A stretch of 64,000 nucleotides of DNA, taken from NCBI GenBank assembly GCA_025829515.1, contig GCA_025829515.1_4865.1; one strand, given 5' to 3'. Every line of letters starts with the position of its first letter. Position 1 is the first letter of the stretch. The translations under genes and the position numbers were made by a program. Of the stretch, positions 6,360-47,556 are shown in pieces. The DNA is from a phage. Under the pieces are notes generated by a model, which was not told where the DNA came from, ran no database searches, and saw only the letters and a program-made list of their open reading frames with translations.

Positions 6360-6387
6360 ATGAAGACACCCTTAAGGAGAATTAAAG

Positions 6388-9800: not shown

Positions 9801-9812
9801 CTGGAGGCGTTA

Positions 9813-18909: not shown

Positions 18910-18962
18910 AGAAAAGGGAGCTTCGGCTCCCCTTCTTTTTTGTTTCCTTTTCTTTTTTTGTT
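18910..18962 (+). terminator. intrinsic terminator
   Basis: gggagc-ttcg-gctccc hairpin followed by a long T-rich tract. Confidence 0.8.
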
Positions 18963-19860: not shown

Positions 19861-19870
19861 GAGGGTATAG

Positions 19871-20713: not shown

Positions 20714-20723
20714 GGATTTTGAC

Positions 20724-21569: not shown

Positions 21570-21590
21570 TCCTGAGTAAAGGAAGTAAGA

Positions 21591-22502: not shown

Positions 22503-22509
22503 TTAGGCC

Positions 22510-22556
22510 TCGCTGGGAGGAGGAAATCCTCCTCCTGGCTACTCCTTTCTTTTTTG
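22510..22556 (+). terminator. intrinsic terminator
   Basis: gggaggagg-aaat-cctcctcc hairpin followed by T-run. Confidence 0.7.
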
Positions 22557-22571
22557 GCCGAGGAGGCTATT

Positions 22572-23411: not shown

Positions 23412-23421
23412 GAATTAGCGA

Positions 23422-24309
23422 ATGGCTATTTATCAACCTTCTAAAGACGTCCTGTTGGCAGCAGTGAACGCACAGAACTCGCTTGCTGTTAAGATGACTG
23501 ACATCATCTGGTCCTCGCCAAAGGACATCCGTGGTACGGAGAAGGAAACGCTGACTAACCGTAACACGCAAATTAAAATTACGGCAGATGGGGTAACGGG
23601 CTCTACCTGGTCGGGTAAGAAAAATGTCTTCTACAACCGCATGAAAGTCGAAGACTTGTTAGTGCTGATTGGTGACACGTTGGCGATCGGCCCATCCAAC
23701 GAAACCTTGTATGCGGCCATTCCTGGACTGAACCAACGTTACGGTTTTGTTCTGGAAGAAGCTGACCTGCAGGACGCAGATATCGAATGGAACGGTGATA
23801 AGACCGAAGGTACTGTGCGCGTTGTTGCACATCCGGAGTCTATCGGCTGGGTTGGACAGGCGACATTTAAAGTCGTGAAAGGCGATGAGTCGTTAGTCTC
23901 TGCGGTCACTACTAACGTCCTGACCGGTCTGAAATACCCGAACGGTCAGATGGGTTCCGAAACCGTTACTGCGGTCATTGCAGAGGTTTATTCCTACCCG
24001 TACAACTTCACCAAATACCGTGATGAGTTGCTGGCATACGTGCCGGGTATTCTGTCCGGGCAGCCGTTAACGGATATGGTTAACCTGCTGAAAGATATCA
24101 CGGGTACTGCATGGGTAGCGACCACCTCCGCTTCCTACGGTTTGGCGGGCGCGGAGGTTATCAGCGTTGGTCTGAATGACCCTGTTGCAATGCCGACAAA
24201 CGCGAAGTACAAGTATGCGCTGGTGTTGAAACTGCCTGTTACCTGTACCACCATCGTCGGAACGTTGTATCTCCAGTTCAACGATCTGGACGATCCAAGC
24301 GAGGTATAA
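23422..24309 (+). CDS. paralog-family protein, short type, member 6
   Basis: TNRNT, YGFVLEEADL, C-terminal LYLQFNDLDDPSEV. Confidence 0.7.
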   Translation: MAIYQPSKDVLLAAVNAQNSLAVKMTDIIWSSPKDIRGTEKETLTNRNTQIKITADGVTGSTWSGKKNVFYNRMKVEDLLVLIGDTLAIGPSNETLYAAIPGLNQRYGFVLEEADLQDADIEWNGDKTEGTVRVVAHPESIGWVGQATFKVVKGDESLVSAVTTNVLTGLKYPNGQMGSETVTAVIAEVYSYPYNFTKYRDELLAYVPGILSGQPLTDMVNLLKDITGTAWVATTSASYGLAGAEVISVGLNDPVAMPTNAKYKYALVLKLPVTCTTIVGTLYLQFNDLDDPSEV

Positions 24310-24312
24310 TTG

Positions 24313-25140
24313 ATGATCAACTATGCTAAGCCGTCAAACGAGTTGGTCTTTGACCTCATTAACCGGGATAACCCAAACCTACCTATTAAAGCGTCGCCGG
24401 CAAACTGCTACGTGGAGAAAGTGACACAGGTTCCCGTTAATGCAGCTTCCAACAACCGCAATACGTCGGCACGCTTGCGCGGTATTCAGGGTTCTGGATT
24501 TCGAGACGCAATCACCGTTTACTACGACCGTGTGAACTTAGCGCGGTTATTGCCGTGGGGGCCTTCCGTCCAGGCGCAGTTCGTCACGTTTGACGCACCC
24601 AACCTCCACTCAGCCTTTTCGGTGCTCTTGGATACCTACGGAGTAAACTTCTCCGCAATCGATATCCAAAACTACTCACTGTTTGGTGCCAATACCCCAA
24701 ATTACACCAATACACAGACCATTGCAGCGCTATCGACATCTCCGGCTTATATCGGTTCTGCGACGTTGCGTTATAACCGTGGTTTACCGGTACTAGACAC
24801 TTCGGTGAAATCGGATGTCTTGAATGCGATTCAAGAGCCTATTTCACCGTCTCTCGGTAAGAAGTGTATTGATTTGTTGACGTACGGTATTGACTTTACC
24901 GCGTATAAAAACCTACTGACAGTAGATGCTTCTGGCCTACCGCAGTGGGCTGGTTTGCGTAAGGTGTTGGATGACCTGGGTATTCCGAACTACGCGGGGC
25001 CACTGAACAGCAACACCGTTCAGGATGTGCCGACTTCCACCGCTCAGTTCGCTAACAAATCGTACGACCGCGTGGTTATCCAAACGGGTATCGATGAGGA
25101 AGGCGTGAAAGGCGTGGCGTACTACCACTATAACAGCTAA
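24313..25140 (+). CDS. paralog-family protein, short type, member 7
   Basis: start moved to ATG at 24313; NNRNT, ITVYYDRVNL, C-terminal YYHYNS. Confidence 0.7.
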   Translation: MINYAKPSNELVFDLINRDNPNLPIKASPANCYVEKVTQVPVNAASNNRNTSARLRGIQGSGFRDAITVYYDRVNLARLLPWGPSVQAQFVTFDAPNLHSAFSVLLDTYGVNFSAIDIQNYSLFGANTPNYTNTQTIAALSTSPAYIGSATLRYNRGLPVLDTSVKSDVLNAIQEPISPSLGKKCIDLLTYGIDFTAYKNLLTVDASGLPQWAGLRKVLDDLGIPNYAGPLNSNTVQDVPTSTAQFANKSYDRVVIQTGIDEEGVKGVAYYHYNS

Positions 25141-25143
25141 GTG

Positions 25144-25171
25144 TAGGGGCTCTTCGGAGCCCCATCTTTTG
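25144..25171 (+). terminator. intrinsic terminator
   Basis: ggggctc-ttcg-gagcccc hairpin followed by atctttt. Confidence 0.7.
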
Positions 25172-25187: not shown

Positions 25188-26600
25188 ATGCTATTTTACT
25201 CGAAGGAGTCGGCACTGCTTGTATACGACCAAGTCAATCGGGATAACCCTGATTTAGTTATTAAGCTGACGCCGGCTATCGCTGCTTTAACCAGTGGCCC
25301 AACCTCAGTTACGTTAAACCAACGTAACACCAAAGCTGTTTTCACCGGGTATCCAGGGACAGGTGTACAAGGTAATGTTACCGTGTACTACGACCGGATT
25401 AACCTGGCCACCTTATTTAATTTTGTGCCGACTGTGGCTATCAAAGACACAGTCTTAACGGTACGAGACGCGTTACCTGCAATAAACGACGCATTAGGAC
25501 TTACATTAGTTGCTTCTGATTTGCAGTCACCTGACGCAAGTTTACCTAAACCGAGCGTTTCGCCGCAGACGTTGAAATTAAATATCTCAGGCAATTGCCC
25601 TGCGTTTACAGGCAGCTTAACGATACGTTATACCGTCCCGAGTGGTGCAATTTACCCCGATTCTGGACCTGGCCCTAAAACGTTGCTGCAAGGTAACACT
25701 ATCGCGGGTTATTTCGGAACAACCAGAACTGCAGAGTTGTTTACACACTCTCAACTTCTTAATGCCACTATATCGGCCGGTGCGTTACCACCGGTACATT
25801 CTGGTGCCGAAGGTTGGTACAAGTTCTTTTACCAGGGTAGGGTTATTTACCTCCCGATCAGTCCTGTCGCTGGCTCCATCTCCTGGAATACGTTATATAC
25901 AAACGGACTCGTTTACGGAACAGACGATAACGGTAAATACCCTGCAGCGACGCCCGTTAACCAGGGACGCATCATTAGCTTTACAGGCGCAGACAACAAA
26001 AGGTTTTACTTCCGTGTTCGTCTACCTAGTGCCGGGAAAGACCCATACGTCAGCGGCACCCCAACTGCCGCTGAGTTAGCAGGTAGTGAGTTTGAGATGT
26101 TCAACTTTCTGTATAATGGAACGTGGGACAAACCGATTAACAGTTACTGGACGCTGTTCTGTTTATTGAAAGATACACTGAAGACCAACGTCGCCCATCA
26201 TCGCATGGCGACGTTGTCTGGAGCAAGTTGGACAAACTTAGAAAAATCATCGAGTGCGGGCAACTACTACTGGTTCCCGGTGCTGGAGTTGGTGGATAAG
26301 TCCACAGTTACCTTGGGTTTAGAAGATATCCACGGTACGGCAGATTACAGTCTCCAACCGTGCAGCGTGTCCGCAGAAAACACATTTAGTCTCAAGCCGT
26401 TAGTGCTCGGTAATCCGGATACTACCGATTTCGAACCGGTAGTTGTTACTTCAGAAAACAGTTTCGCACTGCATCCGCCTGCTTTAATGCTGCCGAAGAC
26501 AGTCGACTTCCAACCTATTGCGGCTACCGCTGAAATGTATACGCCCCCTGACAAGACAACGTTAACGTCTCTTAACGGTGAACTGGACGGCTTTAAGTAG
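25188..26600 (+). CDS. paralog-family protein, long type (anchor N-domain, GPGP core domain, linker, C-terminal NGELDGF tag), module 1
   Basis: NQRNT, VTVYYDRINL, DSGPGPKTLL...GYFG...ELF, YWFPVLELVD, ends SLNGELDGFK. Confidence 0.7.
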   Translation: MLFYSKESALLVYDQVNRDNPDLVIKLTPAIAALTSGPTSVTLNQRNTKAVFTGYPGTGVQGNVTVYYDRINLATLFNFVPTVAIKDTVLTVRDALPAINDALGLTLVASDLQSPDASLPKPSVSPQTLKLNISGNCPAFTGSLTIRYTVPSGAIYPDSGPGPKTLLQGNTIAGYFGTTRTAELFTHSQLLNATISAGALPPVHSGAEGWYKFFYQGRVIYLPISPVAGSISWNTLYTNGLVYGTDDNGKYPAATPVNQGRIISFTGADNKRFYFRVRLPSAGKDPYVSGTPTAAELAGSEFEMFNFLYNGTWDKPINSYWTLFCLLKDTLKTNVAHHRMATLSGASWTNLEKSSSAGNYYWFPVLELVDKSTVTLGLEDIHGTADYSLQPCSVSAENTFSLKPLVLGNPDTTDFEPVVVTSENSFALHPPALMLPKTVDFQPIAATAEMYTPPDKTTLTSLNGELDGFK

Positions 26601-26611
26601 AGGTATCATCT

Positions 26612-27610
26612 ATGTCTTTTACTTTGCGTTGGAAAAATCCAAACGTAATCTCTACGGTAGTAAAAATCTACCGTGATGTTAAAGATATCACACCAAGCGC
26701 TTTGCCTGAACCGATTGCAACGCTCTCAAACGGCGAGACAGAATGGCGTGATACCACCGCCACACCAGGCGCAACCTATTATTACCTTCTGACGGTAACC
26801 GCCAACGGTAAAACAGTGGCATCGTCTAGCCAGAAATATACCATTGAACTGAAGCGGGGAATCGGTCCAATGACTATTCTAAACGGTGACGACCGTTTAG
26901 GGTTTATGGGTGCGGTTCCTTACGACGAACAGTGGCTTCCGTCGCAAATGCCACCTGCATTTTTGGCGATGTTCCCTAACCTACTAACCGATCGTGTGGC
27001 GTTGTATAAATTTACCCGAAACGGGAAGATCTATTACATGCTATCTAGCACGTCGCAGTTCCCGAATACGCCTGTGGACTGGGCTTCCCTCTATCAAGCT
27101 GGTTTAGTCTACGGTACAGGCGATGCTGGCCCAGAGAACGGCCATGGAACGCTACCGGCCACTCCACAAGACGCTAAGATAGTCCACAGAGGGGATACGT
27201 ACATTATGCGTCTTCCTCGCGGCCTGACGACGTCTAGCGAGTCTCCTGCGTATCCTTTCGTGGCTGACTACAATGGGAAAACCCACGATGAAATCGCTTC
27301 TCTAACCAACCCGTGCGAGTATAACGATTTACTTTACACGATGGTTAACGAGGTGCCGAAGAAACAACGTTGGGCTAACTGGGCAACAATCGGTTATACT
27401 TATCTGGGACAGGGTACTTTGGGAACCTTGGCACAGTATTTCGGCGGTGGTGTTCTCTGTATGGAACACGACACCGCGGAAGACCGTGTGCTCCATCGTG
27501 GTATTTTTAACAATGCCGGTGGAACACCCGTATCCACGATTCAGCGTATAAACTATTTATCACCCACCACGAAAGGGCGCTACTACCCTATCTTTGAACT
27601 GGTCGAGTAA
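26612..27610 (+). CDS. module 1 B-type protein (fibronectin-III-like N-domain plus core domain)
   Basis: N-terminus RWKNP...IYRD...TYYYLLTVTANG (FN3-like pattern, inferred); core ends YYPIFELVE. Confidence 0.7.
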   Translation: MSFTLRWKNPNVISTVVKIYRDVKDITPSALPEPIATLSNGETEWRDTTATPGATYYYLLTVTANGKTVASSSQKYTIELKRGIGPMTILNGDDRLGFMGAVPYDEQWLPSQMPPAFLAMFPNLLTDRVALYKFTRNGKIYYMLSSTSQFPNTPVDWASLYQAGLVYGTGDAGPENGHGTLPATPQDAKIVHRGDTYIMRLPRGLTTSSESPAYPFVADYNGKTHDEIASLTNPCEYNDLLYTMVNEVPKKQRWANWATIGYTYLGQGTLGTLAQYFGGGVLCMEHDTAEDRVLHRGIFNNAGGTPVSTIQRINYLSPTTKGRYYPIFELVE

Positions 27611-27619
27611 GGGGCAGTC

Positions 27620-28543
27620 ATGACTATACGGTTAAGCTGGCCGTCCCAAGCCAGCAAAGGTCTTACCGCGATTGAAATCTACCGCAAGGAAGGATGGAAC
27701 GCAACAATCGACGTTTACAACCCAGGCACACCCCACGCCACCTTATCCGGTAGCGCGGTAGAGTTCGTAGATAATATCGATACCCTGACGAAGAATACAA
27801 CTTATCGTTACTGGGTAGCTGCTGTGAAAGATAATGAACGACTTATCGGCAATCCGATTACGCAAGGGTTCTATCCGGACACTGGACCGGGGCCACAAAC
27901 TATTTTGCGTGGCGATTGGGCGTCAGGCTATTTCGGTACGGTATCTAATACCGAGTTCTTTAATACTGCCGAGTTAAAACTCATGTTAACCGCGCAGCAG
28001 GGAAACATGTTTACTTACGACCCTCAGGAATGGCACAAGTTTATTTTCCGTGGGCGAATTGTCTTCTTCCCAGCGACGATGCATTCGAAAAGCAACTCGG
28101 TACAAATGGCGTATCAGTACGGCATGATGTACGGGACCGATGATGTCGGAAGTATTGTTCCGCAGGGAGCCACGGCGACTAAACAAGATTGTAAGGTCAC
28201 GAAGGATGGTCGTACGTACCGTATCCGATTACCTTACGCAGTCCCGTACGACGCGGCACTCTCAGGACAGGATTACAACAACGGTGAATGGCGAAACACA
28301 ATGGGCCGTTTGTATCCTGTCGGTGCACAGTACGCAGCCCTCGGTCTTGGTGCGATTGACTCACTTGAAAGACAAGGCGCGACTGCGCAGCCGAATGAGT
28401 CAGGTGCCGCTGTATTAGCTCCTTTGTGGAGCAACAACATATTCGCTTATGCGTATGGCACCGTGCCTATGGGGATTAGTAACACCGCAGGTGTCGGGAA
28501 CTCGGCCACGATATTCTTTGCTTTTGAATTAGTCTTACCGTAA
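27620..28543 (+). CDS. module 1 C-type protein (FN3-like N-domain plus GPGP core domain)
   Basis: IEIYRK...TTYRYWVAAV, DTGPGPQTILRGDWASGYFG, ends FAFELVLP. Confidence 0.7.
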   Translation: MTIRLSWPSQASKGLTAIEIYRKEGWNATIDVYNPGTPHATLSGSAVEFVDNIDTLTKNTTYRYWVAAVKDNERLIGNPITQGFYPDTGPGPQTILRGDWASGYFGTVSNTEFFNTAELKLMLTAQQGNMFTYDPQEWHKFIFRGRIVFFPATMHSKSNSVQMAYQYGMMYGTDDVGSIVPQGATATKQDCKVTKDGRTYRIRLPYAVPYDAALSGQDYNNGEWRNTMGRLYPVGAQYAALGLGAIDSLERQGATAQPNESGAAVLAPLWSNNIFAYAYGTVPMGISNTAGVGNSATIFFAFELVLP

Positions 28544-28556
28544 TGGAGTAAATACC

Positions 28557-29975
28557 ATGGGGTTGTATACAGAACCTTCAATGGAACTGCTCTGCCAACA
28601 AATTGTGCGTGACAATCCCGGTTTAGCAGGAAAAATCACCCCTGACTCCATTGGGGTCAGGGGTGTTCCTGTTGCGAAAAACGTTAACGGACGAAACACT
28701 CAGATTACGTTGGTAGGAAAACCCGGTAAAGGATTTGCTGGGGAAATAACGGTATATTACGACCGGTTGAATCTGGCCAGTCTATTTAAGTCTGGCCCGA
28801 ATATGGTGAGTATTCCACGTAGCGCACAAACCCATGCGGAAGCGTTACCGGCGTTCAATGAATTGAACGGGTTGAACTTAACCGCGAGTGACATCACCAG
28901 TCCAAACGTTGCATTAATGAAATACGCTACGCCGGAAACTGTAACTCTGACGGCGCACGCTAACTCCTTGTGTTATACCGGGTCATGCAAGATGACCTAT
29001 GTTTACGAACCGATTGCGATGTATCCGAAGTCGGGTCCTGGGCCAAAAGGATTAATGGCCGGTAATGAGTTATACGGATTCTTTGGGCTGGTAAGCGCGG
29101 AAGAGTTATTCACATCTGATGAAATGGTGTATGCCCTCTATAACGGCACCAACTGGCCTAACCGCTACGCTATCAAGTGGCTCAAATTCTTTCTGAATGG
29201 GGCGGTAGTGTTTGTTCCGACCCGTGCGATTTGCAACGTTACCTGGGCAGACCTGTACAACAAGGGTGCAATATTTGATTCCGGAGACGCAGGACCTCGC
29301 CCGAAGTCGACTTACACACCTGTCGATGTTGAACAGTTGAAATACATGGTAAAACGGGATGATGAAGGAACGCATTATTTCAGAATGTCTATCCCGTATT
29401 ACACCGAGAACGCCGCCGCGCCTGATTGGAGTAAACCGCCGTCAATCACCTCTATCCTGTCACTGACCAGCAAATTGGGGTCGGTGAACGTATATGGGGA
29501 GTGGGGAACTCTTAGCACGACTGATGCTAACTTCCTGGATTACGTGTGGTTACGACATCAGTTCGGTGCCGACCAAGCGTATTACCAGTCTATCAGTGGG
29601 AGCTATCGTTCATACACCTACATCTACACCTCTTCTGGCTTTTGGCCAATCCTGGAGATGTTTGATGTTGCCAATGAACCTGTGCCGTTGATTGACGAAG
29701 GTGCAGAGCTAACATGGGCACCGTCCGTGGTTACTCTGACGGACATCGACCAAAATGAATCGCTTCGTGTGGTGCCTATTACGGAAACCTCCGCTGCAGC
29801 GAATCCACGTCCTCTGCTTGCCGCGACGGACAATGATGAACGTGCATATTCCGTCGCGGTAACAGGCATGGCTAGCGTTAAGATTAGACCGATTATTCTC
29901 ACGACTGACCAAATCGCCCAACCTTCAAAAATTACTCTGGGCGATACTAACGGTGAGTTGGATGGATTCCAATAA
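28557..29975 (+). CDS. paralog-family protein, long type with NGELDGF tag, module 2
   Basis: ITVYYDRLNLASLF, KSGPGPKGLMAGNELYGFFG, ends TNGELDGFQ. Confidence 0.7.
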   Translation: MGLYTEPSMELLCQQIVRDNPGLAGKITPDSIGVRGVPVAKNVNGRNTQITLVGKPGKGFAGEITVYYDRLNLASLFKSGPNMVSIPRSAQTHAEALPAFNELNGLNLTASDITSPNVALMKYATPETVTLTAHANSLCYTGSCKMTYVYEPIAMYPKSGPGPKGLMAGNELYGFFGLVSAEELFTSDEMVYALYNGTNWPNRYAIKWLKFFLNGAVVFVPTRAICNVTWADLYNKGAIFDSGDAGPRPKSTYTPVDVEQLKYMVKRDDEGTHYFRMSIPYYTENAAAPDWSKPPSITSILSLTSKLGSVNVYGEWGTLSTTDANFLDYVWLRHQFGADQAYYQSISGSYRSYTYIYTSSGFWPILEMFDVANEPVPLIDEGAELTWAPSVVTLTDIDQNESLRVVPITETSAAANPRPLLAATDNDERAYSVAVTGMASVKIRPIILTTDQIAQPSKITLGDTNGELDGFQ

Positions 29976-29987
29976 GAGGTAACGACA

Positions 29988-30974
29988 ATGGCTTTTACAA
30001 TTCGTTGGACGAACAATAACCCTGGGGCTTCGACCGTGAAGCTGTACCGCGACACCAAACCTCTGGTGCGTACGGCATTACCTGAACCTCTGGCAACGTT
30101 CACTGACGGGGAAACTGAGTATACTGACCGAACGGCGATACTGGGGACAACGTATTACTACATGACCACCGTGACAGTGGGAAGCCGGACACTGTTCAGT
30201 CCGCAGAAATCAATTCTGATTCAGAACCGTCGCGGTATCGGCATCGTGGCTCCACAGTACGGTGATGACCGCTTTGCGTATTACGGGTATGTGGCGTACG
30301 GTGAATTACCTAGCGCGGGTGATTATCCGCCAGGGTTTGTGGCCCTTTCTGGATACGACCCAACTGTTAAGCCGGGCTTGATGAAGTTCCAGCTAGACGG
30401 TAAAATTCTGTATCTGTTTAGTGGTCTTCGTGTGAACGGCAACACGCTGTATAGCCGTGATGCGATTTATAACGCGGGTTTGCTGTACGGTGTGGCGGGA
30501 CCTGGTCCGGAAGGCGGTCATGGCGATTTACCTGACGTTGACCAGGCTGGGGAGTTTACGTGGTTGGGTGACCGCTATCGGATGCGCCTGCTGCGCGGTT
30601 TAACACTCGACAGTGAAAGCCCGGTCATGACACTCGATGCACAGTGGAACGGTAAACTCCATGACGCGTCACCGTATACTGCCGATAGCGAATACAACCG
30701 ACTCATCTATGGGATAAGTAGCTGGTTCCCAGAAAAGAAAAAAGTGATGTCCCTGATAAAGTGGTCGAACTCCAGCATATTCGGAAGTGGATCGCTGGTG
30801 GCAGGCCGTGGGGCGCATTGTCAGGAGTTTGACCCAGACCGTAAGTTGGGGCTGACGCGCGGATGGGCGGCGGCGGATTCCACTGATACCGTGGATAACC
30901 TCCAGCGTATACAACATGTCCCTGGTGCGACCGGCGGTATTTGGATTCCAGTAATCGAGCTTATCGAGGATTAA
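29988..30974 (+). CDS. module 2 B-type protein
   Basis: paralog of 26612-27610; ends IWIPVIELIED. Confidence 0.7.
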   Translation: MAFTIRWTNNNPGASTVKLYRDTKPLVRTALPEPLATFTDGETEYTDRTAILGTTYYYMTTVTVGSRTLFSPQKSILIQNRRGIGIVAPQYGDDRFAYYGYVAYGELPSAGDYPPGFVALSGYDPTVKPGLMKFQLDGKILYLFSGLRVNGNTLYSRDAIYNAGLLYGVAGPGPEGGHGDLPDVDQAGEFTWLGDRYRMRLLRGLTLDSESPVMTLDAQWNGKLHDASPYTADSEYNRLIYGISSWFPEKKKVMSLIKWSNSSIFGSGSLVAGRGAHCQEFDPDRKLGLTRGWAAADSTDTVDNLQRIQHVPGATGGIWIPVIELIED

Positions 30975-30976
30975 TC

Positions 30977-31876
30977 ATGCCTATTACATTAAACTTTGCA
31001 CAACGGAAGCCACAGGCGCTCGATAACATTGAAATCTATCGCAAGACGCCGGGCAACGCCACCATTGATGTTAATGCACCGGGAACGCCTCTGGCAACCC
31101 TTCCGGGTGACGCTACATCGTACGAAGACAACGCTGTGGAAAACAACACCACTTACCGTTATTGGATTGCTGCGGTTAAAGACGGTGAGCGTGTCTTCAA
31201 CACCCCTACCGCCCAAGGGTTCTTTTTAGACACCGGGCCTGGCCCCCAGAAACTGTTATACGGCGACTGGCACGCTGGATACTTTGGAACAGTAACGCCA
31301 GCAGAGTTATTCACTAACGCGGAACTGAACAGCCTCGTGGTGAATATGTTCAGTTCCGCCGTTGGTGCCTGGCATAAGTTCATTTACAAAAACCGTATTC
31401 TGTTTATGTCCGATAACTCGATAATATACGCTAGCCCGCAGTTCATTTATAACCAGGGGCTGATGTACGGCCAGGATGGCAACGGATATGTGCCGAGCTG
31501 GGCTAGTGCACGTAACCAACGCCGCACGGTGACGAAAAACGGTTACGAATACGTGGTGCGCTTGCCGTATTTGTTCGACTACAAATACTGGACGTCTTTC
31601 GTTGGAGGCGGTAACACCGAGTTGTATCTCGACGGTGAGTGGTTTAACACCTTCGCGCGCCTGTACAACTACAGTGGGCAGTTTCCGCGCTTTGACGACC
31701 TTCCGGTCGGTTCAATCGATTCGGTTACTGCCCAACAATCTGCATTCTTTGCGGCTATGAATAACTCGTTCAGTCAGTGGTACAACCGTCCACCTTACCC
31801 AGAGTCGCCGACATGGAGTAACTACGGTACCACTACAGTGCGTTCTATTGCGGTACTTGAACTCGTTCTGCCTTAA
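30977..31876 (+). CDS. module 2 C-type protein
   Basis: start moved to ATG at 30977 (gagga SD); paralog of 27620-28543; ends AVLELVLP. Confidence 0.7.
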   Translation: MPITLNFAQRKPQALDNIEIYRKTPGNATIDVNAPGTPLATLPGDATSYEDNAVENNTTYRYWIAAVKDGERVFNTPTAQGFFLDTGPGPQKLLYGDWHAGYFGTVTPAELFTNAELNSLVVNMFSSAVGAWHKFIYKNRILFMSDNSIIYASPQFIYNQGLMYGQDGNGYVPSWASARNQRRTVTKNGYEYVVRLPYLFDYKYWTSFVGGGNTELYLDGEWFNTFARLYNYSGQFPRFDDLPVGSIDSVTAQQSAFFAAMNNSFSQWYNRPPYPESPTWSNYGTTTVRSIAVLELVLP

Positions 31877-31887
31877 CAGGAGACTTC

Positions 31888-33330
31888 ATGGGATTGTATA
31901 GCGCACCCGAACTGGAATTACTCTGCCAACAAGTCGTAAGGGATAACCCTGAACTCGCAGGAAGAATCAGCGCTGATTCGATTGGGGTGAGGGGTGTTCC
32001 TGCCGAGACCACTAAGAATGGTCGTAACACGGTAATTACGTTGGTAGGTAAACCCGGTAAAGGTTTCTCTGGGGAGTGCACGGTTTATTACGACCGTTTA
32101 ACATTATCAGATCTATTTAAAATAGCTCCGCGCGTCTACGTACCACAAACGGCCAAGACCGTGCGGGATCTTCTCCCAGCTCTACGTGATTTATACGGTG
32201 TTTGGTTATCTGATAGCAGTGTACAGTCGGTAGACGCGCCTATCAAATCGCTGGCAACGCCAACACGTATTAATTTAACCGCGTATAATAGCGTATGCTA
32301 TCGCGGCTATATCCCGGTCGATTATTTGAATGAAGCCGTAGGGTACTATCCAGATTCTGGGCCAGGCAATAAATATTTGTTGGCAGGGGACAGCACAAAC
32401 GGATACTTCGGTCACGTTTCTCAGCAAGAGTTATTTACCTTTGCTGAACTAAACAACCTAATTCGTCCTGATGTTTCCCCAACGAAAATGACTTTCGAGT
32501 GGTTGAAATTTTTCAAGGACGGTAAGATTGTTTATCTACCGACTACCGGAACGTTAACAGCAACCTGGACGGCCCTTTATCAAGCGGGTGCCATTTTCGG
32601 TACAGGTGACGCTGGTCCGTATCCAGACGGTATCGAACCTGTTGACCAGGCTTTGATTGTCACGAAAACTGAGAATAACAAGACGCATTATTACCGTGTC
32701 TCCGTTCCGGTTAGCCCTGATTTATCAAAGGCCACGCCGTTGTGGCTTATTTCACAACTCGGTGACGGTTCTACGGGTGGCGACTGGGCAAATGACACCA
32801 CGTTAACCAGAACCACCGTCTTCTTCACGCAACAACTGTTAACCGGGGGTAACCCTGTTAAAGTACAACGTTGCAATATGCGCGGTGGCTCAGTTGAATG
32901 GGTAACCCTTGCAGATACCACTTACTGGTGGCCTGTTTTAGAGGAAATCAATAAGGACGACATCGTCTTACCTTTAGCTGATGTGGAAGGGGATGTTGTG
33001 TGGCGCGTTAGGGTTATTCCTAATGTACCATCACCACAACCTGATAGCATTCGCCCTCTTGCAGTCGAGGTTGCGACAACAGATGCGCCGAGACCTCTAG
33101 CAACAACTGCGGAACAGGTGGAAGAACCTATCAGCCCGATTGTGGTGGGTGAACCAAACGTCGATACTGCGCTGCCGTTATCGACAGTGTCGAAGAGCGT
33201 AGGTACAGTTAGGCCGATGGTTGTACTTGAACCACACGTCGACGCACCGCGTCCACTACCGCCTACTCAGGCAGAACCTCCACTTAAAACAGATTTAGCA
33301 ACCGCGAACGGTGAGTTGAACGGCTTCTAA
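31888..33330 (+). CDS. paralog-family protein, long type with NGELNGF tag, module 3
   Basis: CTVYYDRLTLSDLF, DSGPGNKYLLAGDSTNGYFG, Pro-rich DAPRPL repeats, ends ATANGELNGF. Confidence 0.7.
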   Translation: MGLYSAPELELLCQQVVRDNPELAGRISADSIGVRGVPAETTKNGRNTVITLVGKPGKGFSGECTVYYDRLTLSDLFKIAPRVYVPQTAKTVRDLLPALRDLYGVWLSDSSVQSVDAPIKSLATPTRINLTAYNSVCYRGYIPVDYLNEAVGYYPDSGPGNKYLLAGDSTNGYFGHVSQQELFTFAELNNLIRPDVSPTKMTFEWLKFFKDGKIVYLPTTGTLTATWTALYQAGAIFGTGDAGPYPDGIEPVDQALIVTKTENNKTHYYRVSVPVSPDLSKATPLWLISQLGDGSTGGDWANDTTLTRTTVFFTQQLLTGGNPVKVQRCNMRGGSVEWVTLADTTYWWPVLEEINKDDIVLPLADVEGDVVWRVRVIPNVPSPQPDSIRPLAVEVATTDAPRPLATTAEQVEEPISPIVVGEPNVDTALPLSTVSKSVGTVRPMVVLEPHVDAPRPLPPTQAEPPLKTDLATANGELNGF

Positions 33331-33340
33331 GGAGTAACAG

Positions 33341-34339
33341 ATGGCTTTCACACTACGCTGGAAAAATGAAAATCCGGCAGGTTCAATTGTTAACATTTAT
33401 CGGGGCACGGCTAAAATAAATACAGCCGCATTACCAGCCCCTATTGCAACTTTAAGTAATGGCGAAACGGAATGGACGGACGAAACCGTTATTCTTAACA
33501 CCCGTTACTGGTATCTTTTAACAGTAACTGTTAACGGTCGTACCGTAGGTAGTCCACAAAAATCCATTGTCATTAAAAACCGTCGTGGTGTGGGTGGCGT
33601 CGACCAGATTAACTATTCCGATACTGACGACTTGGCGTTTCTGGGGCAGTTGCCGTTCGAAGAACAGATGACCTATGACGCGTTGCCTGCAGGCTTTCGT
33701 GCATTAACAGGGATATCGGGCACGGGCACGCTAATCATGAACAAGTTTTATCGTCATGGTAAAGTTTACTACATGATGAACAGCGGCGGACGATTTAACT
33801 CTACACTTTACTCGTGGAATGACATTTATAACGCGGGGCTTGTGTACGGTGTTGATGGATTTGGTCCTGATAACGGACGTGGGGATTTGGCAGGTGTTGA
33901 CCAGAGTGGGTTGTTTGAATGGCAAGGCGACACCTATCGGATGCGATTGCTGCGCGGTTTAACCGACGGGGACGAACCGACAGTAATGACATTGGATGAA
34001 TCGTTGCGAAACGCAGACCATGATGACTTGGAATATGGTCGCTGCGAATATAACGATTTTGTTTATCCGTTCGGAGAATGTATCCCTAACAAACAAATGC
34101 TCCCTAACTGGACTAATATTAGTCCAGCGTCCATTTATGGGAGCGGTAGCGCTTACCAAGGCAAAGGTTTCTTGTGCCAAGAACGTGATCCTGAATCGGG
34201 ATTAGTTCTGGTTCGCGGGTCTGCGCCTATCGATTCAAGCATAACCAATACGTCGAAACGTAACCTCTCCCAAGTTACGTTAGTTGATAGTGCTGAGAAG
34301 GTCGGTTTGTACGCATTCGTTATCGAGTTAGTGGAGTAA
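33341..34339 (+). CDS. module 3 B-type protein
   Basis: paralog of 26612-27610 and 29988-30974; ends YAFVIELVE. Confidence 0.7.
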   Translation: MAFTLRWKNENPAGSIVNIYRGTAKINTAALPAPIATLSNGETEWTDETVILNTRYWYLLTVTVNGRTVGSPQKSIVIKNRRGVGGVDQINYSDTDDLAFLGQLPFEEQMTYDALPAGFRALTGISGTGTLIMNKFYRHGKVYYMMNSGGRFNSTLYSWNDIYNAGLVYGVDGFGPDNGRGDLAGVDQSGLFEWQGDTYRMRLLRGLTDGDEPTVMTLDESLRNADHDDLEYGRCEYNDFVYPFGECIPNKQMLPNWTNISPASIYGSGSAYQGKGFLCQERDPESGLVLVRGSAPIDSSITNTSKRNLSQVTLVDSAEKVGLYAFVIELVE

Positions 34340-34342
34340 AAC

Positions 34343-35245
34343 ATGTCGATTATCTTAAACTGGAAACAACAGTCAGGTCAGACTTTAGATTCCATTGAAA
34401 TCTATCGTTACGACAACCCTAGACAAAGTGTTAACCCAGTAGCACCGGGGGAACCCATTGTAACACTACCAGGTAACACAACGACGTACGAGGACAAGAC
34501 CACCGAAGCGTATAAAACGTATCAATATCGCATCGTGGCGGTAAAGGGCACTGAAAAGGTTATGGGGCTGCCGATTGTACAGGGCGACTTTCCAATGACA
34601 GGGCCCGGCCCACAGGAACTTATTCGTGGCGATTGGCATCGTGGCTACTTTGGCACACTGACAAACAAAGAATTTATTCTTAACCATGCCGAGCTGAATG
34701 GTTTAATTGGCTTTAATGCCTGGAACCAAGCTCCAACATTGTTCCATAAATTCGTTTTCAAAGGACGCATTCTGTTCATTCCTGACACGGTGACCCGTTT
34801 AGGGACGTCGTGGGAAGAACAATACCGGCAAGGTCTGGCCTGGGGAACAGATGACTACGGTTTCCCGCCAGGGGGCGTCACTACCACTAACCAGCGTCGG
34901 ACATTTAATAAAGACGGTTACGAGTATGTGGTACGCTTGCCTCGACTCGGAGACTACAGTTATGGGCACAGCACCTACCTAAGCAGCGGTGGTTATTTTC
35001 AAGACGGCGAGTGGCACAACACGTTCGCAAGCTTGTTCCGGTACGCGGGCGTCGTAAGACGTTTTGGCGACTTACCGATGCGCTCCGGCGGTAGTCCAAC
35101 CGATTCAAGCGCAACATTGTTTGCCAACGGTCGTGACATCTACAACGCCTGGTACTATCGCAGCAACTCACCAGACTCACCATCGTATACCTATTCGACC
35201 GATAGCGCGTCGGTAGTCCACGTTATCGAATTGGTTCTTAGCTAA
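34343..35245 (+). CDS. module 3 C-type protein
   Basis: paralog of 27620-28543; MTGPGPQELIRGDWHRGYFG; ends HVIELVLS. Confidence 0.7.
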   Translation: MSIILNWKQQSGQTLDSIEIYRYDNPRQSVNPVAPGEPIVTLPGNTTTYEDKTTEAYKTYQYRIVAVKGTEKVMGLPIVQGDFPMTGPGPQELIRGDWHRGYFGTLTNKEFILNHAELNGLIGFNAWNQAPTLFHKFVFKGRILFIPDTVTRLGTSWEEQYRQGLAWGTDDYGFPPGGVTTTNQRRTFNKDGYEYVVRLPRLGDYSYGHSTYLSSGGYFQDGEWHNTFASLFRYAGVVRRFGDLPMRSGGSPTDSSATLFANGRDIYNAWYYRSNSPDSPSYTYSTDSASVVHVIELVLS

Positions 35246-35256
35246 CAGGAGCTAAT

Positions 35257-35553
35257 ATGGGGTTTTACTCATCCACTGCACTTGAGCTGTTGTGTCGGCT
35301 CATTCAGCGGGATAATCCCCAACACGCAGGTCGAATCAGCGCAGATTCAATTGGGGAGTGTACGATCTATTACGATAAGTCGTTAAGCAGTAACACAGTG
35401 GCCGATGTTACCACCGCATCCAACTCGTTCGCTAATAAAGCGTACGGCCGCGCGGTTATCCAAACTGACGTCGAAGCAGCTGGAGTTAAAGGGATAGCGT
35501 ACTTCACCATAACAGCTAAAAATAGGCCCCGAAGGGCCTATTTTCTTTTTTAG
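35257..35553 (+). pseudogene. chimeric, frameshifted remnant of the paralog family
   Basis: first ~33 codons match long-type N-termini, then jumps to a short-type C-terminus; a 1-nt difference relative to the YYHYNS-stop ending removes the stop and the frame runs into the terminator hairpin. Confidence 0.6.
35521..35553 (+). terminator. intrinsic terminator
   Basis: aataggcccc-gaag-gggcctatt hairpin followed by ttcttttttt. Confidence 0.8.
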
Positions 35554-35562: not shown

Positions 35563-36882
35563 ATGATCAACTATAACAAACCTGTCATGCAGCTGGTTTG
35601 GGATCAGATTAATCGTGATAACCCGCAGCTCAAGAAACCACTCAACGCAACCAACGTGGCGTTATTACAAGGTCCTTTAACCAATGCCTTGCGCGATGGC
35701 CGCAACAGCCGTATAGTGGTAAACGGATTACAGGGTGGCGGTTACAGCGGTAAGATGGACATCTACTACGACCGCTTAAACCTTTCGCAGTATTTTAAAG
35801 GCGTCAGCGTACCGGTTAAAGTACCTTATCGGGCGACGTCCTACCGCGACATCATCGACCGGATTTCCGCAGCTTGTGGGCTGGTGCTTACTGCTGACGA
35901 TTTAACGTATCCTGACAGCCAGTTTGCAATGATCACTGTGGCAACGGGCGATCGGACGGTGGCGATTAAATCGGATAACCCCGCATTCACGGGTCACATT
36001 CCTATTAGCTTTATTCGTGAAGAGCCCAGCTTTGCCGACTTGTACCACACCACCGAAACCGGAGCTTGGGAACCCATGGATGTTTACAGCACGGTCTATC
36101 GACTCGACTGGAGCATGTACACCCAACAGATAATCAATATTCCAATGGGTACCCCGCTGCGACTAAACAGTAACTCGTACATGACCCAGTTCATCGCGGC
36201 GCTGTCGGCATGGTCGGGCATCCCGTTCACTATCGGTAATGCTGCTACCGATAACCCGTATGACCTCTATGGGTATGTCGCTACACGCAATAACAACCCA
36301 GGCTTAGACCCTGATATGCGTGGGGAGTACAATTACTGCGTGAAGTTGACGCCACCTGAGGATATGGGTAATCTCCGTCGTCCGTTCTTCTTGCACTTTG
36401 GTCCGAAAAATAACGTGGCCTATTTGGCGCAGGAAAAGGACGTCGAACGTTATGCGCGTTACATGAGGTTCCGGGAAACCAGCTCAAATTCGATGAGCGT
36501 CACGTTGTATCAAAACGAGTACGTGTTGACTCGGGCAGAATCGCCTGAAACTGCGGATGATTTAACGGGTTCCCCGTATGGCACTCGATACTGTACCGGG
36601 AGTATTCGACGGCTGATGCAACACGCGTTTCCGACCGAAGAGATGTTCCAAGAAAGTATTGCTAACCGACGTCGGGTACTGTACCACACTGCTTACACCA
36701 CCACGACATCAGCTATTACTTACCAGGGACTATACCGTAACGGATACCAATCCAAACAAATGACGAGCCTCTACTCGAATTACTGTAACTATTTCATCTA
36801 TTACGACCCAAGCAAAGGCGGCTATATGGTCTACAGTCCATATAGCAAAACCGCCCCGGTCCCTTGGTATCCAGCGCTATAG
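35563..36882 (+). CDS. paralog-family protein with a distinct C-terminal domain
   Basis: N-terminus MINYNKP...INRDNP...DIYYDRLNLS is family-like; C-terminus YYD..G.M...PY.K.AP.PW shared with the next gene. Confidence 0.65.
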   Translation: MINYNKPVMQLVWDQINRDNPQLKKPLNATNVALLQGPLTNALRDGRNSRIVVNGLQGGGYSGKMDIYYDRLNLSQYFKGVSVPVKVPYRATSYRDIIDRISAACGLVLTADDLTYPDSQFAMITVATGDRTVAIKSDNPAFTGHIPISFIREEPSFADLYHTTETGAWEPMDVYSTVYRLDWSMYTQQIINIPMGTPLRLNSNSYMTQFIAALSAWSGIPFTIGNAATDNPYDLYGYVATRNNNPGLDPDMRGEYNYCVKLTPPEDMGNLRRPFFLHFGPKNNVAYLAQEKDVERYARYMRFRETSSNSMSVTLYQNEYVLTRAESPETADDLTGSPYGTRYCTGSIRRLMQHAFPTEEMFQESIANRRRVLYHTAYTTTTSAITYQGLYRNGYQSKQMTSLYSNYCNYFIYYDPSKGGYMVYSPYSKTAPVPWYPAL

Positions 36883-36896
36883 ACTAAGGTGTCACC

Positions 36897-39074
36897 ATGT
36901 CCTACACTCCTGATTTAGTGGCGACCGTGATTCGGTCGCTCAACCGTAAAAACGCGGTCGCCAAAGCAGTAGACCCCGCTAACGTACGCCTGGTGTCCGT
37001 GGCGCATCGTGACGAAAAAACCCTAGACGTCACACTGACAGGGGGTCCGGGGTATTCAAGTTACGGTCAAATTACGGCCCAAGTCACGAAGCAAAATATT
37101 GCTGATTATTTCGCCAAGGTTAAGTTGGATGCCATTCCCACTTGTGCGTCCATCCACGAACTGTTGCCGCATTTAGACACTCTACTAGGGATTACCTTTT
37201 TAACTGACGACTTTGAAGACCTGCCTATCACTTGGACAAACAATGCTGCGTGTATCACGTTCCAGGCGAAACAGACAAGTCTTATCTGGTACGGCAGCCA
37301 AACGCTAGATGTGATAAACGGTGACGTGGATATCAACACCGTCTACACTGTTACCAACATCATTCTCACGCTAAAGGCTGCGAATAAACAGCAGTGGATT
37401 AACTTCTACTCTAATGCAACCAAACGGATCGTGGATCTTGATAAAGTCGATGTCAGCTCCCCGATGTCCCCGGAGGATATAGGCCAAACCTCTGCGTATA
37501 ACAGCGTCGTAGCTTTGACCGCTAGACCGGGGAGCGGGATGTTTGGAACGAAGTATGTGTTCTTTTCACGTAACAAACTCGAGACATATGCAGGCAAAAC
37601 CACATACGTCCCGGATGATTTCACCGGTAGCCTGCACGATGCTCTGGCCATCGAGACACTCGGCATTCGGAGTGTTTTTGATGTAAACGAAATTGCTCCT
37701 GTAGAGAACCTGGCAGGCGAGTGGCCGAGACAAGTGCAATTGGCACCCGTAGAGGGTTCGTACAAAGTCATGGGCAGTGCCACGTTGAATGTGGCACGCT
37801 ATCAAGATAACGAGCAAACCCTTAACCTGAACTACACAACTACGTCGCAACTTTCGGACAGCTACTGGGCCACAACGTTGACCAACCATGCGGCGTGCGG
37901 GCGTTTGTTTGTTAACGTGACCGTAGATGCGGGGGCTTTCGTTTATCGCGACAGCAACCTGAAACCGACGTTCGTTATCGACGAATTGCCGCAAATTGGC
38001 GAGGTGGTTTGGAACTTCGTTAACCGGGGAACCATTCTTGGTCGTGGTGGTTCGGGTATGGTCTACTCTATGCCTGCGAACACATCAGCGGACGGAGCTG
38101 ACGCAATCCACATTACCGATGCCTTCCGCGGCAAAGTCACCATCGAAAACTACGGCACCATCGCCGGAGGTGGGGGCGGGGGCGACTACTATGCGTTTAG
38201 CACCACCAAGATCGGTGGAGCTGGTGGTGCGCCACTCGGGACAGGCGCGGTGGTGCCCAGCGGCACCAATAACCGTAACGGCTTAGCTGGGTCCCGTGAC
38301 AAAGGCGGTGCTACTCAGTTAGTCGTCGCACAATTTACCGGCTACCAGAGTCGCTACTATGGCGGTCCGGGTGGGGATTGGGGCCAGCCGGGACGATATA
38401 CAGCGTTCGAGCAATGGAACACCCCGGCTACCGGCTCGCCGATCTATGTCTACGGTCGTGAAGACGGGATGTCATGGACTCGCCCTGGGATGGCAGGCGA
38501 AGCCGTCGGTGGGAATAAAAGTATCGTCAACTGGGTATCCGTCGGAACGGTGAAACCGAATGTCACCAACGAGTACCAAGAGTTCCTCGACTACCTCGCA
38601 GATTTAGATGCCAACCGATTGGCCAGTGCGGATGGGATAGATAAAGTCACCGACCCAACCAAGCCTGTAGTTGTGGAGTTCTTAGGTACGATTATTTCAG
38701 GTACGCTGTTCCAAAAGCAAAACATACCCGGCGGTTTGGTGGGAACACCATACGGCGATGCTGTAGCCAACTTACCAGCCACCACATTGTTTGGTATCAT
38801 GGCACACTGTGTATCGGAGTTTGATATTGTGCACGACACTTGGCGTTACAACCGCGCGGTGATGTTCACGCTAAAACCCGCACCTACCGGGGCGATTAGC
38901 CTCGCTGTGGAACGCAACCGGGTGAAATCGGCTACCAGTAGTGCACCGGTGGAGAAGTTCTACGTCGATCGCTTCGTGTATTACGATGCGTATCTCGGTA
39001 AAATGATGGAATGTAATCCGTATACCAAATCTGCCCCTAAACCGTGGGTGCGGCCAACGATACCGTTATCGTAA
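36897..39074 (+). CDS. paralog-family protein with Gly-rich region (725 aa); candidate receptor-binding protein
   Basis: Gly-rich tract IAGGGGGGDYYAFSTTKIGGAGGAPLGTG; C-terminal domain shared with 35563-36882; stop is followed in frame by FNEELDGFKA-stop. Confidence 0.65.
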   Translation: MSYTPDLVATVIRSLNRKNAVAKAVDPANVRLVSVAHRDEKTLDVTLTGGPGYSSYGQITAQVTKQNIADYFAKVKLDAIPTCASIHELLPHLDTLLGITFLTDDFEDLPITWTNNAACITFQAKQTSLIWYGSQTLDVINGDVDINTVYTVTNIILTLKAANKQQWINFYSNATKRIVDLDKVDVSSPMSPEDIGQTSAYNSVVALTARPGSGMFGTKYVFFSRNKLETYAGKTTYVPDDFTGSLHDALAIETLGIRSVFDVNEIAPVENLAGEWPRQVQLAPVEGSYKVMGSATLNVARYQDNEQTLNLNYTTTSQLSDSYWATTLTNHAACGRLFVNVTVDAGAFVYRDSNLKPTFVIDELPQIGEVVWNFVNRGTILGRGGSGMVYSMPANTSADGADAIHITDAFRGKVTIENYGTIAGGGGGGDYYAFSTTKIGGAGGAPLGTGAVVPSGTNNRNGLAGSRDKGGATQLVVAQFTGYQSRYYGGPGGDWGQPGRYTAFEQWNTPATGSPIYVYGREDGMSWTRPGMAGEAVGGNKSIVNWVSVGTVKPNVTNEYQEFLDYLADLDANRLASADGIDKVTDPTKPVVVEFLGTIISGTLFQKQNIPGGLVGTPYGDAVANLPATTLFGIMAHCVSEFDIVHDTWRYNRAVMFTLKPAPTGAISLAVERNRVKSATSSAPVEKFYVDRFVYYDAYLGKMMECNPYTKSAPKPWVRPTIPLS

Positions 39075-45987: not shown

Positions 45988-46009
45988 TGCAGGTTGCTCC
46001 AGTATATTT

Positions 46010-47546: not shown

Positions 47547-47556
47547 TTAATCCCCC

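Follow-up and report, generated by a model that had tools for sequence, protein, structure and literature searches.

Why would a giant phage carry the same set of three genes three times in a row, and what might the encoded proteins do for the virion? The question is raised by a stretch of phage DNA of 64,000 nucleotides (nt), here called the window (contig GCA_025829515.1_4865.1 of GenBank assembly GCA_025829515.1), in which nine open reading frames (ORFs) at 25188–35245 form three successive cassettes, each with one gene of the types A, B and C. Judged by its nucleotide matches, the window is from a giant Salmonella phage of the SPN3US kind, and the array as a feature is already published as part of the SPN3US paralog family B. 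The answer that we favour, giving it about an even chance of being correct, is that the three proteins of a cassette make up one binding head, exposed and in low copy number, of the fibre network that proteins with the domain DUF7941 (PF25613) build on the virion.

A threefold array of old paralogs

The original prediction, made from the letters of the DNA, described three A-B-C units with a periodicity of about 3.35 kb. All nine ORFs are present at the predicted positions on the plus strand, neighbouring ORFs are spaced 2–13 nt apart, and the measured periods are 3369 and 3331 nt. The genes are as follows (aa, amino acids; domain X is a domain of ~220 aa that is described below):

25188–26600, plus strand: A1, 470 aa, orthologue of SPN3US gp145 and of its Proteus phage 7 counterpart (best match 100% aa identity); DUF7941 N-domain at aa 1–150, domain X (predicted lectin-like) at aa 155–375, predicted disordered tail at aa 380–470 ending KTTLTSLNGELDGFK
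26612–27610, plus strand: B1, 332 aa, SPN3US gp146; FN3-like N-domain and domain X
27620–28543, plus strand: C1, 307 aa, SPN3US gp147; FN3 at aa 1–85, domain X at aa 86–307
28557–29975, plus strand: A2, 472 aa, SPN3US gp148 (498 aa); architecture as in A1, with one 26-aa tail repeat fewer than gp148
29988–30974, plus strand: B2, 328 aa, SPN3US gp149; FN3 and domain X
30977–31876, plus strand: C2, 299 aa, SPN3US gp150; FN3 and domain X; starting at the ATG annotated in SPN3US (called mechanically, the ORF begins at a TTG at 30941)
31888–33330, plus strand: A3, 480 aa, SPN3US gp151; DUF7941 N-domain, domain X and a repeat tail ending NGELNGF
33341–34339, plus strand: B3, 332 aa, SPN3US gp152; FN3 and domain X
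34343–35245, plus strand: C3, 300 aa, SPN3US gp153; FN3 and domain X

In all-versus-all BLASTP over the full lengths, the paralogs share 30% (A1/A2), 31% (A1/A3) and 38% (A2/A3) identity for A, 39% (B1/B2), 39% (B1/B3) and 47% (B2/B3) for B, and 43% (C1/C2), 37% (C1/C3) and 45% (C2/C3) for C; at E values between 1e-52 and 1e-96, none of these similarities can be put down to chance. The C-termini of the A proteins are NGELDGFK (A1), NGELDGFQ (A2) and NGELNGF (A3). Whichever of A, B and C is considered, cassettes 2 and 3 resemble each other most and cassette 1 stands apart, and this one shared tree fits a duplication of the whole three-gene unit. The three parallel diagonals expected of a triplication are clear at the protein level and faint in the DNA, where the self-comparison gave just short, weak diagonals (54–235 nt, 74–78% identity, offsets of 3331–3375 nt). 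Orthologues in the Erwinia phage ChrisDB are closer (A/B/C identities of 51/67/58% for cassette 1 and 45/58/56% for cassette 3) than are the paralogs within the window; the duplications therefore predate the split of the Salmonella and Erwinia phage lineages, and the predicted course of ancient duplication followed by diversification is borne out. The same nine genes occur in at least 17 independently sequenced phage genomes. That the repeat could be an assembly artefact, as the prediction had already denied, or a very recent duplication has a negligible probability, being refuted by the low protein identities of the copies (30–47%), by the presence of the array in these many independent genomes and by orthologues of separate cassettes in Erwinia phages, with no evidence found in its support.

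In a megablast comparison of 25188–35245 with GenBank phages, 38 records matched, 17 of them over the whole stretch. The best nucleotide matches were Proteus phage 7 (98.9%) and the Salmonella phages SPLA1a, 1252, SEGD1 and SPN3US (97.7%), all of them Seoulvirus jumbo phages with genomes of ~240 kb. The SPN3US counterpart is JN641803, 121518–131656 (~10 kb at 97.7% nucleotide identity), comprising SPN3US_0145–SPN3US_0153, which are labelled "putative virion structural proteins 12-19" in GenBank; each of the nine window proteins shares 94–100% identity with its best counterpart to gp145–153 in SPN3US or Proteus phage 7. By orthology to gps 138–154 at the same genomic position, the array belongs to the SPN3US paralog family B (gps 83, 138–154, 160/161, 237; Thomas et al. 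2016, Ali et al. 2017). The second of these papers gave the family its name, with 20 members (gps 83, 138–154, 161, 237) and no function known. It has been called the largest paralog family within any single phage genome, and its function has been open since 2016.

Within the window this family extends around the array, as found by BLASTP and our own hidden Markov models (HMMs), to the seven genes at 19063–25140 and to genes at 35563–39074, 41967–42494 and 9774–10346. BLASTP ties the A proteins to the seven upstream genes via the N-domain and to B and C via domain X; B and C had no direct BLASTP link to the seven upstream genes. The members next to the array are:

19063–25140, plus strand: seven tandem full-length DUF7941 genes with N- and C-domain, SPN3US gps 138–144; candidate shaft or network subunits
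35563–39074, plus strand: two proteins of 439 and 725 aa with the DUF7941 N-domain and other C-terminal parts, SPN3US gp154 and gp155
41967–42494, plus strand: gp160 homologue, 175 aa, with a partial DUF7941 N-domain and the C-terminal motif VKTDLSTTNGELDGFV common to the A proteins

The gp155 homologue (725 aa, 36897–39074) has two DUF7941-N-like segments (aa 10–138 and 173–250), a glycine-rich middle part (GRGGSG..., GGGGGGDYY, GGAGGAPLGTG) and a C-terminal part of ~100 aa common to the neighbouring 439-aa protein, and it is missing from JN03 and ChrisDB.

Domain make-up, variation and inheritance of the cassettes

The A proteins matched DUF7941 in Pfam with 110.6 (A1), 105.5 (A2) and 79.0 bits (A3) against a cut-off of 27. 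The match spans profile positions 1–153 of 276 and thus covers the N-domain only (protein residues 1–150), for which structure comparison of the predicted model suggests the same fold as in phiKZ gp127 (PDB 9xqd). Elsewhere in the window the N-domain occurs in the seven genes at 19063–25140, which keep the DUF7941 C-domain as well, in the genes for the 439-aa and 725-aa proteins, in the ORF at 9774–10346 and partly in the gp160 homologue. For B and C there was no DUF7941 match in Pfam at E values up to 1 and none with our own N-domain HMM, so B and C are not DUF7941 proteins. All three gene types are nevertheless related, as all carry domain X: residues 155–375 of A are homologous to the C-terminal ~220 aa of every B and C in BLASTP, and B and C are homologous to each other along their entire length. 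In B and C an N-terminal FN3 domain precedes their own version of domain X; in the model of C1 the N-terminal 85 residues are predicted to form the FN3 beta-sandwich.

The third part of A is its tail. In the model of A1 (predicted local distance difference test, pLDDT, of 76.8) the chain is folded through residue 375, and aa 380–470 have a pLDDT <50 and appear disordered. The tail is made of 26-aa repeats with short conserved motifs (PRPL in A2, PKTVDFQP in A1) and, though disordered, holds motifs that are conserved across orthologues. The last ~20 residues, K-x-[TD]-L-x3/4-NGEL[DN]GF, are common to the gp160 homologue. The number of repeats in the A tails (26330–26600, 29700–29975 and 33000–33330) varies between phages that are otherwise 94–99% identical; A2 of the window has one unit fewer than its SPN3US counterpart (472 versus 498 aa) and A1 of JN03 has one more (496 versus 470 aa).

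What kind of domain is domain X? Neither for domain X nor for B and C as a whole was there a Pfam match or a credible sequence match in the PDB, whether single sequences or a profile of 22 sequences were used, and the same searches gave no sequence relation of domain X to a known C-type-lectin or FGE family. A PHROGs search returned unnamed "virion structural protein" families only. Further structure-search matches listed for A1 are, apart from a few of high root-mean-square deviation to unrelated folds, C-type-lectin-like or FGE-like: the C-domain of Bdellovibrio Bd2740 (6.2; search values in parentheses), Treponema TvpA (6.0), Bordetella phage Mtd (4.6), TaqVP (4.6), about thirty natural killer (NK) receptor and other animal lectin domains (4.2–5.0), as well as PvdO, CarF, EgtB, OvoA, invasin and intimin. 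We attribute these lectin-like matches to domain X because the authors of a study on phage Goslar describe DUF7941-only proteins without a structural match (bioRxiv 10.64898/2026.04.21.720040). The order of secondary structures in the C1 model (strand, helix, hairpin, helix, hairpin, long loop, four strands) agrees. At the level of fold only, domain X is therefore predicted to be C-type-lectin-like, with adhesin tips as its probable nearest structural neighbours.

The domain appears to be at home in jumbo phages. A domain X profile run against 5.8 billion proteins matched 65 proteins of ~160–470 aa, located on contigs of ~230–250 kb where long ones were available, and nothing outside such jumbo-phage genomes; PF25613 was the sole co-occurring Pfam domain and there was no informative fusion. 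With C1 as tblastn query the domain was found in 129 phage records, and the organism names listed are all jumbo phages (of Erwinia, Salmonella, Pseudomonas, Ralstonia, Cronobacter, Serratia and similar hosts). A search for related loci with C1 alone returned SPN3US itself only.

Among the paralogs, the N-terminal half of domain X is conserved (GPGP..L..GD...GYFG, W.KF...GK, SW..LY.AGL.YG, Y.VRLP), and the C-terminal half is hypervariable in length and sequence until the conserved final W.PVLELV. The same segment stands out among four to six close relatives when the ratio of nonsynonymous to synonymous substitution rates (dN/dS) is considered, using Nei-Gojobori counts that were pooled over non-independent pairs and are descriptive only:

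Full-length DUF7941 genes: dN/dS 0.05–0.26
A genes: dN/dS 0.13–0.21
B2 and C2: dN/dS 0.51
C3: dN/dS 0.64
gp160 homologue: dN/dS 0.51
B and C by region: dN/dS 0.13 in FN3, 0.20 in the N-half and 0.37 in the C-half of domain X

Two sets of values were left out, those of the first upstream gene and of the gp156 homologue, because the JN03 copy is split or divergent and the codon alignment meaningless. For B and C together, dN rises fourfold from FN3 (0.009) to the C-half of domain X (0.036), so that the search for a diversifying segment ended in the C-half of domain X of B and C, where change is concentrated. We conclude on faster protein evolution in B2, C2, C3 and this half-domain only and do not claim positive selection. 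As a source of the variation we also considered a diversity-generating retroelement and rejected it: in a sensitive blastn search, none of the domain X C-halves had a second, template-like copy elsewhere within the 64 kb of the window, although a reverse transcriptase was not searched for.

To compare the cassettes of other phages, we scanned the fetched loci with our own HMMs for five parts (N-domain, DUF7941 C-domain, FN3, domain X and tail end). CR5, PhiEaH1 and SA002 repeat the order [domain X + tail]-[FN3 + X]-[FN3 + X], and arrays of this kind are found in RSL2 and PhiPA3 too:

Cronobacter phage CR5: one cassette; A with the DUF7941 N-domain
Salmonella phage SA002: one cassette; first gene without the DUF7941 N-domain
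E. coli phage EC001 and Salmonella phage pSal-SNUABM-04: two cassettes, as also in phages Lh1B, SPLA3 and SPLA5c
Erwinia phage PhiEaH1: two cassettes; first gene of each trio without the N-domain
Window, SPN3US, Proteus phage 7, SPFM4 and JN03: three cassettes
Erwinia phages ChrisDB and pEa_SNUABM_8: four cassettes
Ralstonia phage RSL2: one [X + tail] and two [FN3 + X] genes; first gene without the N-domain
Pseudomonas phage PhiPA3: one [X + tail] and three [FN3 + X] genes; first gene without the N-domain

We conclude from these arrays that the ancestral unit was [X + tail][FN3-X][FN3-X] and that the first gene gained the DUF7941 N-domain in the group of Seoulvirus, Machinavirus and Derbicusvirus. 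In PhiEaH1 and SA002 the trio lies directly 3′ of a gene labelled "putative tail fiber protein", which is itself preceded by a gene for a small DUF7941-N protein.

At least five cassette types can be distinguished, and the identity matrices give the same pattern for A, B and C, with one mosaic (A of CR5 groups with ChrisDB cassette 4, and B and C of CR5 with cassette 3). As far as genome comparison can tell, the trio is inherited, lost and exchanged as a unit. The junction between cassettes is conserved over ~40 nt and consists of the 3′ end of the C gene (codons for ELVLP or ELVLS), its stop, a CAGGAG ribosome-binding site and the A start ATGGG. Three rearrangements were mapped relative to the window, in EC001, in JN03 and in the window itself, and the deletion breakpoints are at or adjoin cassette junctions. 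EC001 has no equivalent of 31907–35493 (cassette 3 plus the remnant listed below, cut 19 nt into A3). JN03 has no equivalent of 32269–35142; what is left of cassette 3 is ~380 nt of A3 plus the final 100 nt of C3, and past the deletion an intact cassette of another type follows, 57–64% identical to ChrisDB cassette 4. In the window, and with an additional internal 129-nt deletion in SPN3US, a chimeric ORF follows C3 that looks like the scar of a lost fourth cassette. Because the deletions in EC001, JN03 and the window differ, the ancestor probably had at least four cassettes, of which the lineages would have lost different ones. This remnant and the hairpins that bound the nine-gene block are:

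25146–25163, plus strand: terminator-like hairpin (GGGGCTC-TTCG-GAGCCCC, then a T-run) between the last full-length DUF7941 gene and A1; upstream bound
35257–35553, plus strand: 98-codon chimeric ORF, putative cassette remnant; the first ~30 codons match A of the cassette type that is intact in JN03, the rest is the 3′ end of a gp144-like DUF7941 C-domain
35519–35544, plus strand: terminator-like hairpin (11 bp stem, CGAA loop, T-run), kept in SPN3US, Proteus phage 7 and EC001; downstream bound

Together with a third plus-strand tetraloop hairpin with T-run at 18916–18931, these two hairpins, all of them consensus matches only, bracket the seven-gene DUF7941 block and the nine-gene cassette block. 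Sigma-70 promoters were not enriched (17 found, 21.5 expected), a count that carries no information, since these phages transcribe with RNA polymerases of their own. Of the hairpins in the 20 kb that were scanned, the strongest lies within the coding region of A2 (28637–28665, approximately codons 27–37), a perfect 13-bp inverted repeat with a 3-nt loop, CACCCCTGACTCC-ATT-GGGGTCAGGGGTG, which may be due to chance.

Abundance, location and possible function

By mass spectrometry of SPN3US, gp145–153 are all present in virions at low abundance, with spectral counts per kDa (SC/M) of 0.48–2.15; for reference, the portal (12 copies) has 0.93, the tail sheath (264 copies) 8.84, and gp141 and gp160, among the most abundant virion proteins, ~9.4. 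The Goslar preprint of April 2026 reports that DUF7941 proteins are very abundant in virions and that purified gp22 forms filaments in vitro; AlphaFold predicts head-to-tail docking of gp22 and gp23, with a disordered linker reaching onto the N-domain of the next protomer, and the authors propose a "fibre cloud" at the peripheral baseplate, some members of which bear host-recognition or carbohydrate-binding domains (bioRxiv 10.64898/2026.04.21.720040).

Transferred to the window, the bulk subunits of such a network would be gp141 and gp160, with their sheath-like abundance, and A, with its portal-like abundance, would be an adaptor that plugs into the head-to-tail DUF7941 polymer as proposed for gp22 and gp23, its N-domain accepting a partner, its gp160-like tail end donating, and a lectin-like head being carried along. 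The disordered tail with its conserved motifs and the terminal motif common to gp160 are the points that would, indirectly, support filament assembly of A. Since B and C are in the virion and have no DUF7941 domain, something must hold them, and the simplest candidate is the A protein of the same cassette, which may do so via the three copies of domain X or via the repeats of its tail. The simplest form would be a hetero-trimer of the three domain X copies of A, B and C. Lcl, Bd2740 and Mtd are trimeric fibre tips, and with such neighbours the hetero-trimer is attractive, as pure inference. One virion would then display three heads with up to nine lectin-like surfaces for host ligands such as glycans or the flagellum, and the number and type of cassettes would shift by recombination at the conserved junction of C-stop, ribosome-binding site and A-start. 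SPN3US is reported to use flagella as receptor, which a flexible network of fibres would suit. A more specific version, which we put forward tentatively and hold to be possible rather than probable, has a hetero-trimeric tip clipped by A into DUF7941 filaments that are partly head-borne in SPN3US-type phages, with one to four interchangeable tips reset at the ~40-nt junction, so that a flagellotropic jumbo phage would catch its hosts with a cloud of fibres, and would amount to diversification of a lectin fold without a retroelement.

The original prediction had proposed that each module may build a distinct adhesin or fibre assembly, giving three alternative specificities. The DUF7941 domain in A, the predicted lectin-like domain X, inheritance as a unit and the localised variation all make this idea plausible and do not prove it; a simple tail fibre is disfavoured, because family B proteins occur in particles of the tailless mutants 64_112(am27) and 255(am107) at levels equal to or higher than in whole virions. 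These SPN3US data contradict a fibre that is anchored exclusively at the baseplate, and they are the first of several points that weigh against our reading of the cassettes as binding heads. No ligand of the cassette proteins is known and the papers searched gave no experimental data on binding to a host receptor, dN/dS exceeds 1 nowhere (in pooled pairwise counts that are not independent), PhiPA3 with one A-like and three B/C-like genes is a misfit to a strict 1:1:1 trimer, and both the hetero-trimer and the docking role of the tail rest on inference.

On the location, the published evidence conflicts. The SPN3US authors classed family B as head proteins that are possibly ejected (Ali et al. 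2017, and the 2023 paper with the second mutant, 255(am107)), and phiKZ gp127, a homologue of the N-domain, was modelled by cryo-electron microscopy at the outer periphery of the baseplate (Nat Commun 2026, PMC13250141). To reconcile the two, the network could sit on the head or neck in SPN3US, it could be present at both sites, or self-assembled filaments could co-purify with heads.

Alternatively, the proteins may be exposed and yet confer no host specificity: as redundant building blocks or decorations of the particle they would bind to its capsid or to environmental polymers such as mucus and biofilm matrix, as is proposed for T4 Hoc, and the copies would serve dosage or robustness. We regard this as unlikely, but not negligibly so. 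The SPN3US capsid has an unassigned Hoc-like density at the centre of each hexamer, ~260 copies, which is the abundance class of gp141 and gp160 (nothing links them directly), and the head association of the family, the average dN/dS below 1 and the fact that two-cassette and three-cassette phages both infect Salmonella point in the same direction. Pure dosage would not, however, lead one to expect paralogs diverged to 30–47% identity with a hypervariable sub-region, cassette types are swapped between phages that are otherwise 94–99% identical, and evolution is faster in that half of domain X which putatively binds the ligand.

In the SPN3US literature the proteins are tentatively placed inside the head, packaged with the DNA and possibly ejected into the cell, which we consider improbable. 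Their normalised levels in the two kinds of tailless particles, at or above those of the wild type, and the label "Head ejection?" given to abundant family members speak for it. Self-assembling filaments could co-purify with heads or sit on the head surface, though, and FN3, lectin-like and filament-forming DUF7941 domains are typical of exposed binding structures. Furthermore, the prohead protease is listed as cutting the abundant ejection proteins gp53 and gp54 but no family member, cryo-electron microscopy of phiKZ put the homologue of the N-domain in the outer baseplate, and in PhiEaH1 and SA002 the trio adjoins a gene for a tail fibre.

Six B and C orthologues of Proteus phage 7 (MT679221, 9425–18136) are labelled "glycosyl hydrolase" in GenBank. 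Taken at face value, this label would make B and C depolymerases that degrade host polysaccharide, and some Goslar DUF7941 proteins do bear glycoside hydrolase domains (bioRxiv 10.64898/2026.04.21.720040). We hold this to be very improbable, given that Pfam, PHROGs and PDB sequence searches returned not a single hydrolase family, that the listed matches of the confident C1 model are to FN3 only and that domain X of A1 appears to match lectin-like and not hydrolase folds. The label was therefore rejected as unsupported. In the two-cassette relative pSal-SNUABM-04, a gene for a "putative EPS depolymerase" of the pectate lyase superfamily (5454–7259) lies directly before the seven DUF7941 genes; the window has no such gene there, and it may be a further host-recognition element tied to the same gene block.

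Our analysis divides family B into a probable shaft or network class (the full-length DUF7941 proteins and gp160) and three low-copy cassettes of predicted lectin-like proteins, and an unexplained family becomes testable for complex formation, localisation, ligand binding and the host range of two-, three- and four-cassette variants. Should the cassettes set adsorption specificity, they would be the part to compare or engineer in SPN3US-like phages for the biocontrol of Salmonella, E. coli and Erwinia; should the hetero-trimeric tip be real, the largest paralog family known in a phage genome would have a function.

Other features of the window and known systems

Outside family B, the minus strand at 49265–62400 carries a second tandem set of paralogs, three ORFs of very large size that encode 1742, 1376 and 1237 aa and match one another in BLASTP at E values down to 8e-25. 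By size and number they look like SPN3US gps 168–170 (188, 149 and 135 kDa), the published "paralog family C" related to the phiKZ fibre protein gp131, and may correspond to them. Two adjoining minus-strand ORFs at 43752–46023 correspond to the SPN3US "radical SAM superfamily protein 1 and 2", with 100% protein identity to close relatives. A further local tandem duplication is formed by two adjoining small minus-strand ORFs at 47142–47949 (134 and 130 aa, 43% mutual identity). The 272-aa ORF at 1522–2340 has a DPPY motif (ADPPYIPLS) and an N-terminal KWMGGK and looks, by eye, like a Dam-type DNA adenine methyltransferase.

The closest known system is the SPN3US paralog family B itself, which comprises the same genes and has been treated as one undivided set that was assigned to the head, with no function proposed. 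The A-B-C periodicity, the domain make-up and the variation between one and four cassettes are not described in the SPN3US family literature (Thomas 2016, Ali 2017 and the 2023 paper). Apparently new relative to these papers are the arrangement in cassettes, the FN3 and predicted lectin-like domains, the motif that the A tail has in common with gp160, the one to four cassettes together with the deletion scars that could be mapped, and where the fast-evolving segment lies.

Compared with the DUF7941 proteins gp22 and gp23 of Goslar and gp126 and gp127 of phiKZ, the A proteins of the window have the C-domain replaced by domain X and the repeat tail, and B and C are without DUF7941; C1, with its FN3 and domain X, had no tblastn match in Goslar. 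The anchoring at the baseplate that is proposed for Goslar and phiKZ conflicts with the proteomics of tailless SPN3US particles. Binding structures borne on the head are known from T4, with Hoc, and from the flagellotropic phage 7-7-1, with its capsid fibres; they are exposed, Ig- or FN3-like and aid contact with surfaces or flagella, just as SPN3US is flagellotropic and its family B head-associated by proteomics. They have no sequence relation and no demonstrated structural relation to gp145–153, whose position on the capsid surface is hypothetical.

In the multi-tailspike phage CBA120 and the Klebsiella jumbo phage PhiKp24 with its branched fibres, receptor-binding proteins are encoded side by side. 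The likeness to the window lies in diverged binding modules that are arranged in tandem and would be displayed together, and in relatives that differ by gain, loss and exchange of modules. The modules of CBA120 and PhiKp24 are beta-helix tailspikes or depolymerases that are attached to the baseplate via defined adaptor domains, whereas those of the window are three-gene, lectin-like sets that would be attached to a DUF7941 polymer.

The predicted fold of domain X, finally, appears to match those of Mtd of phage BPP-1, TvpA, TaqVP, Bdellovibrio Bd2740 and the C-domain of Legionella Lcl. Mtd, TvpA and TaqVP carry their variable residues in the C-terminal part of the C-type-lectin fold, and the C-terminal portion is the variable one in domain X as well. 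There is no sequence similarity between domain X and the Mtd-type binders, and a head, if trimeric, would here be a hetero-trimer; diversity arises from gene duplication and cassette exchange instead of a retroelement.

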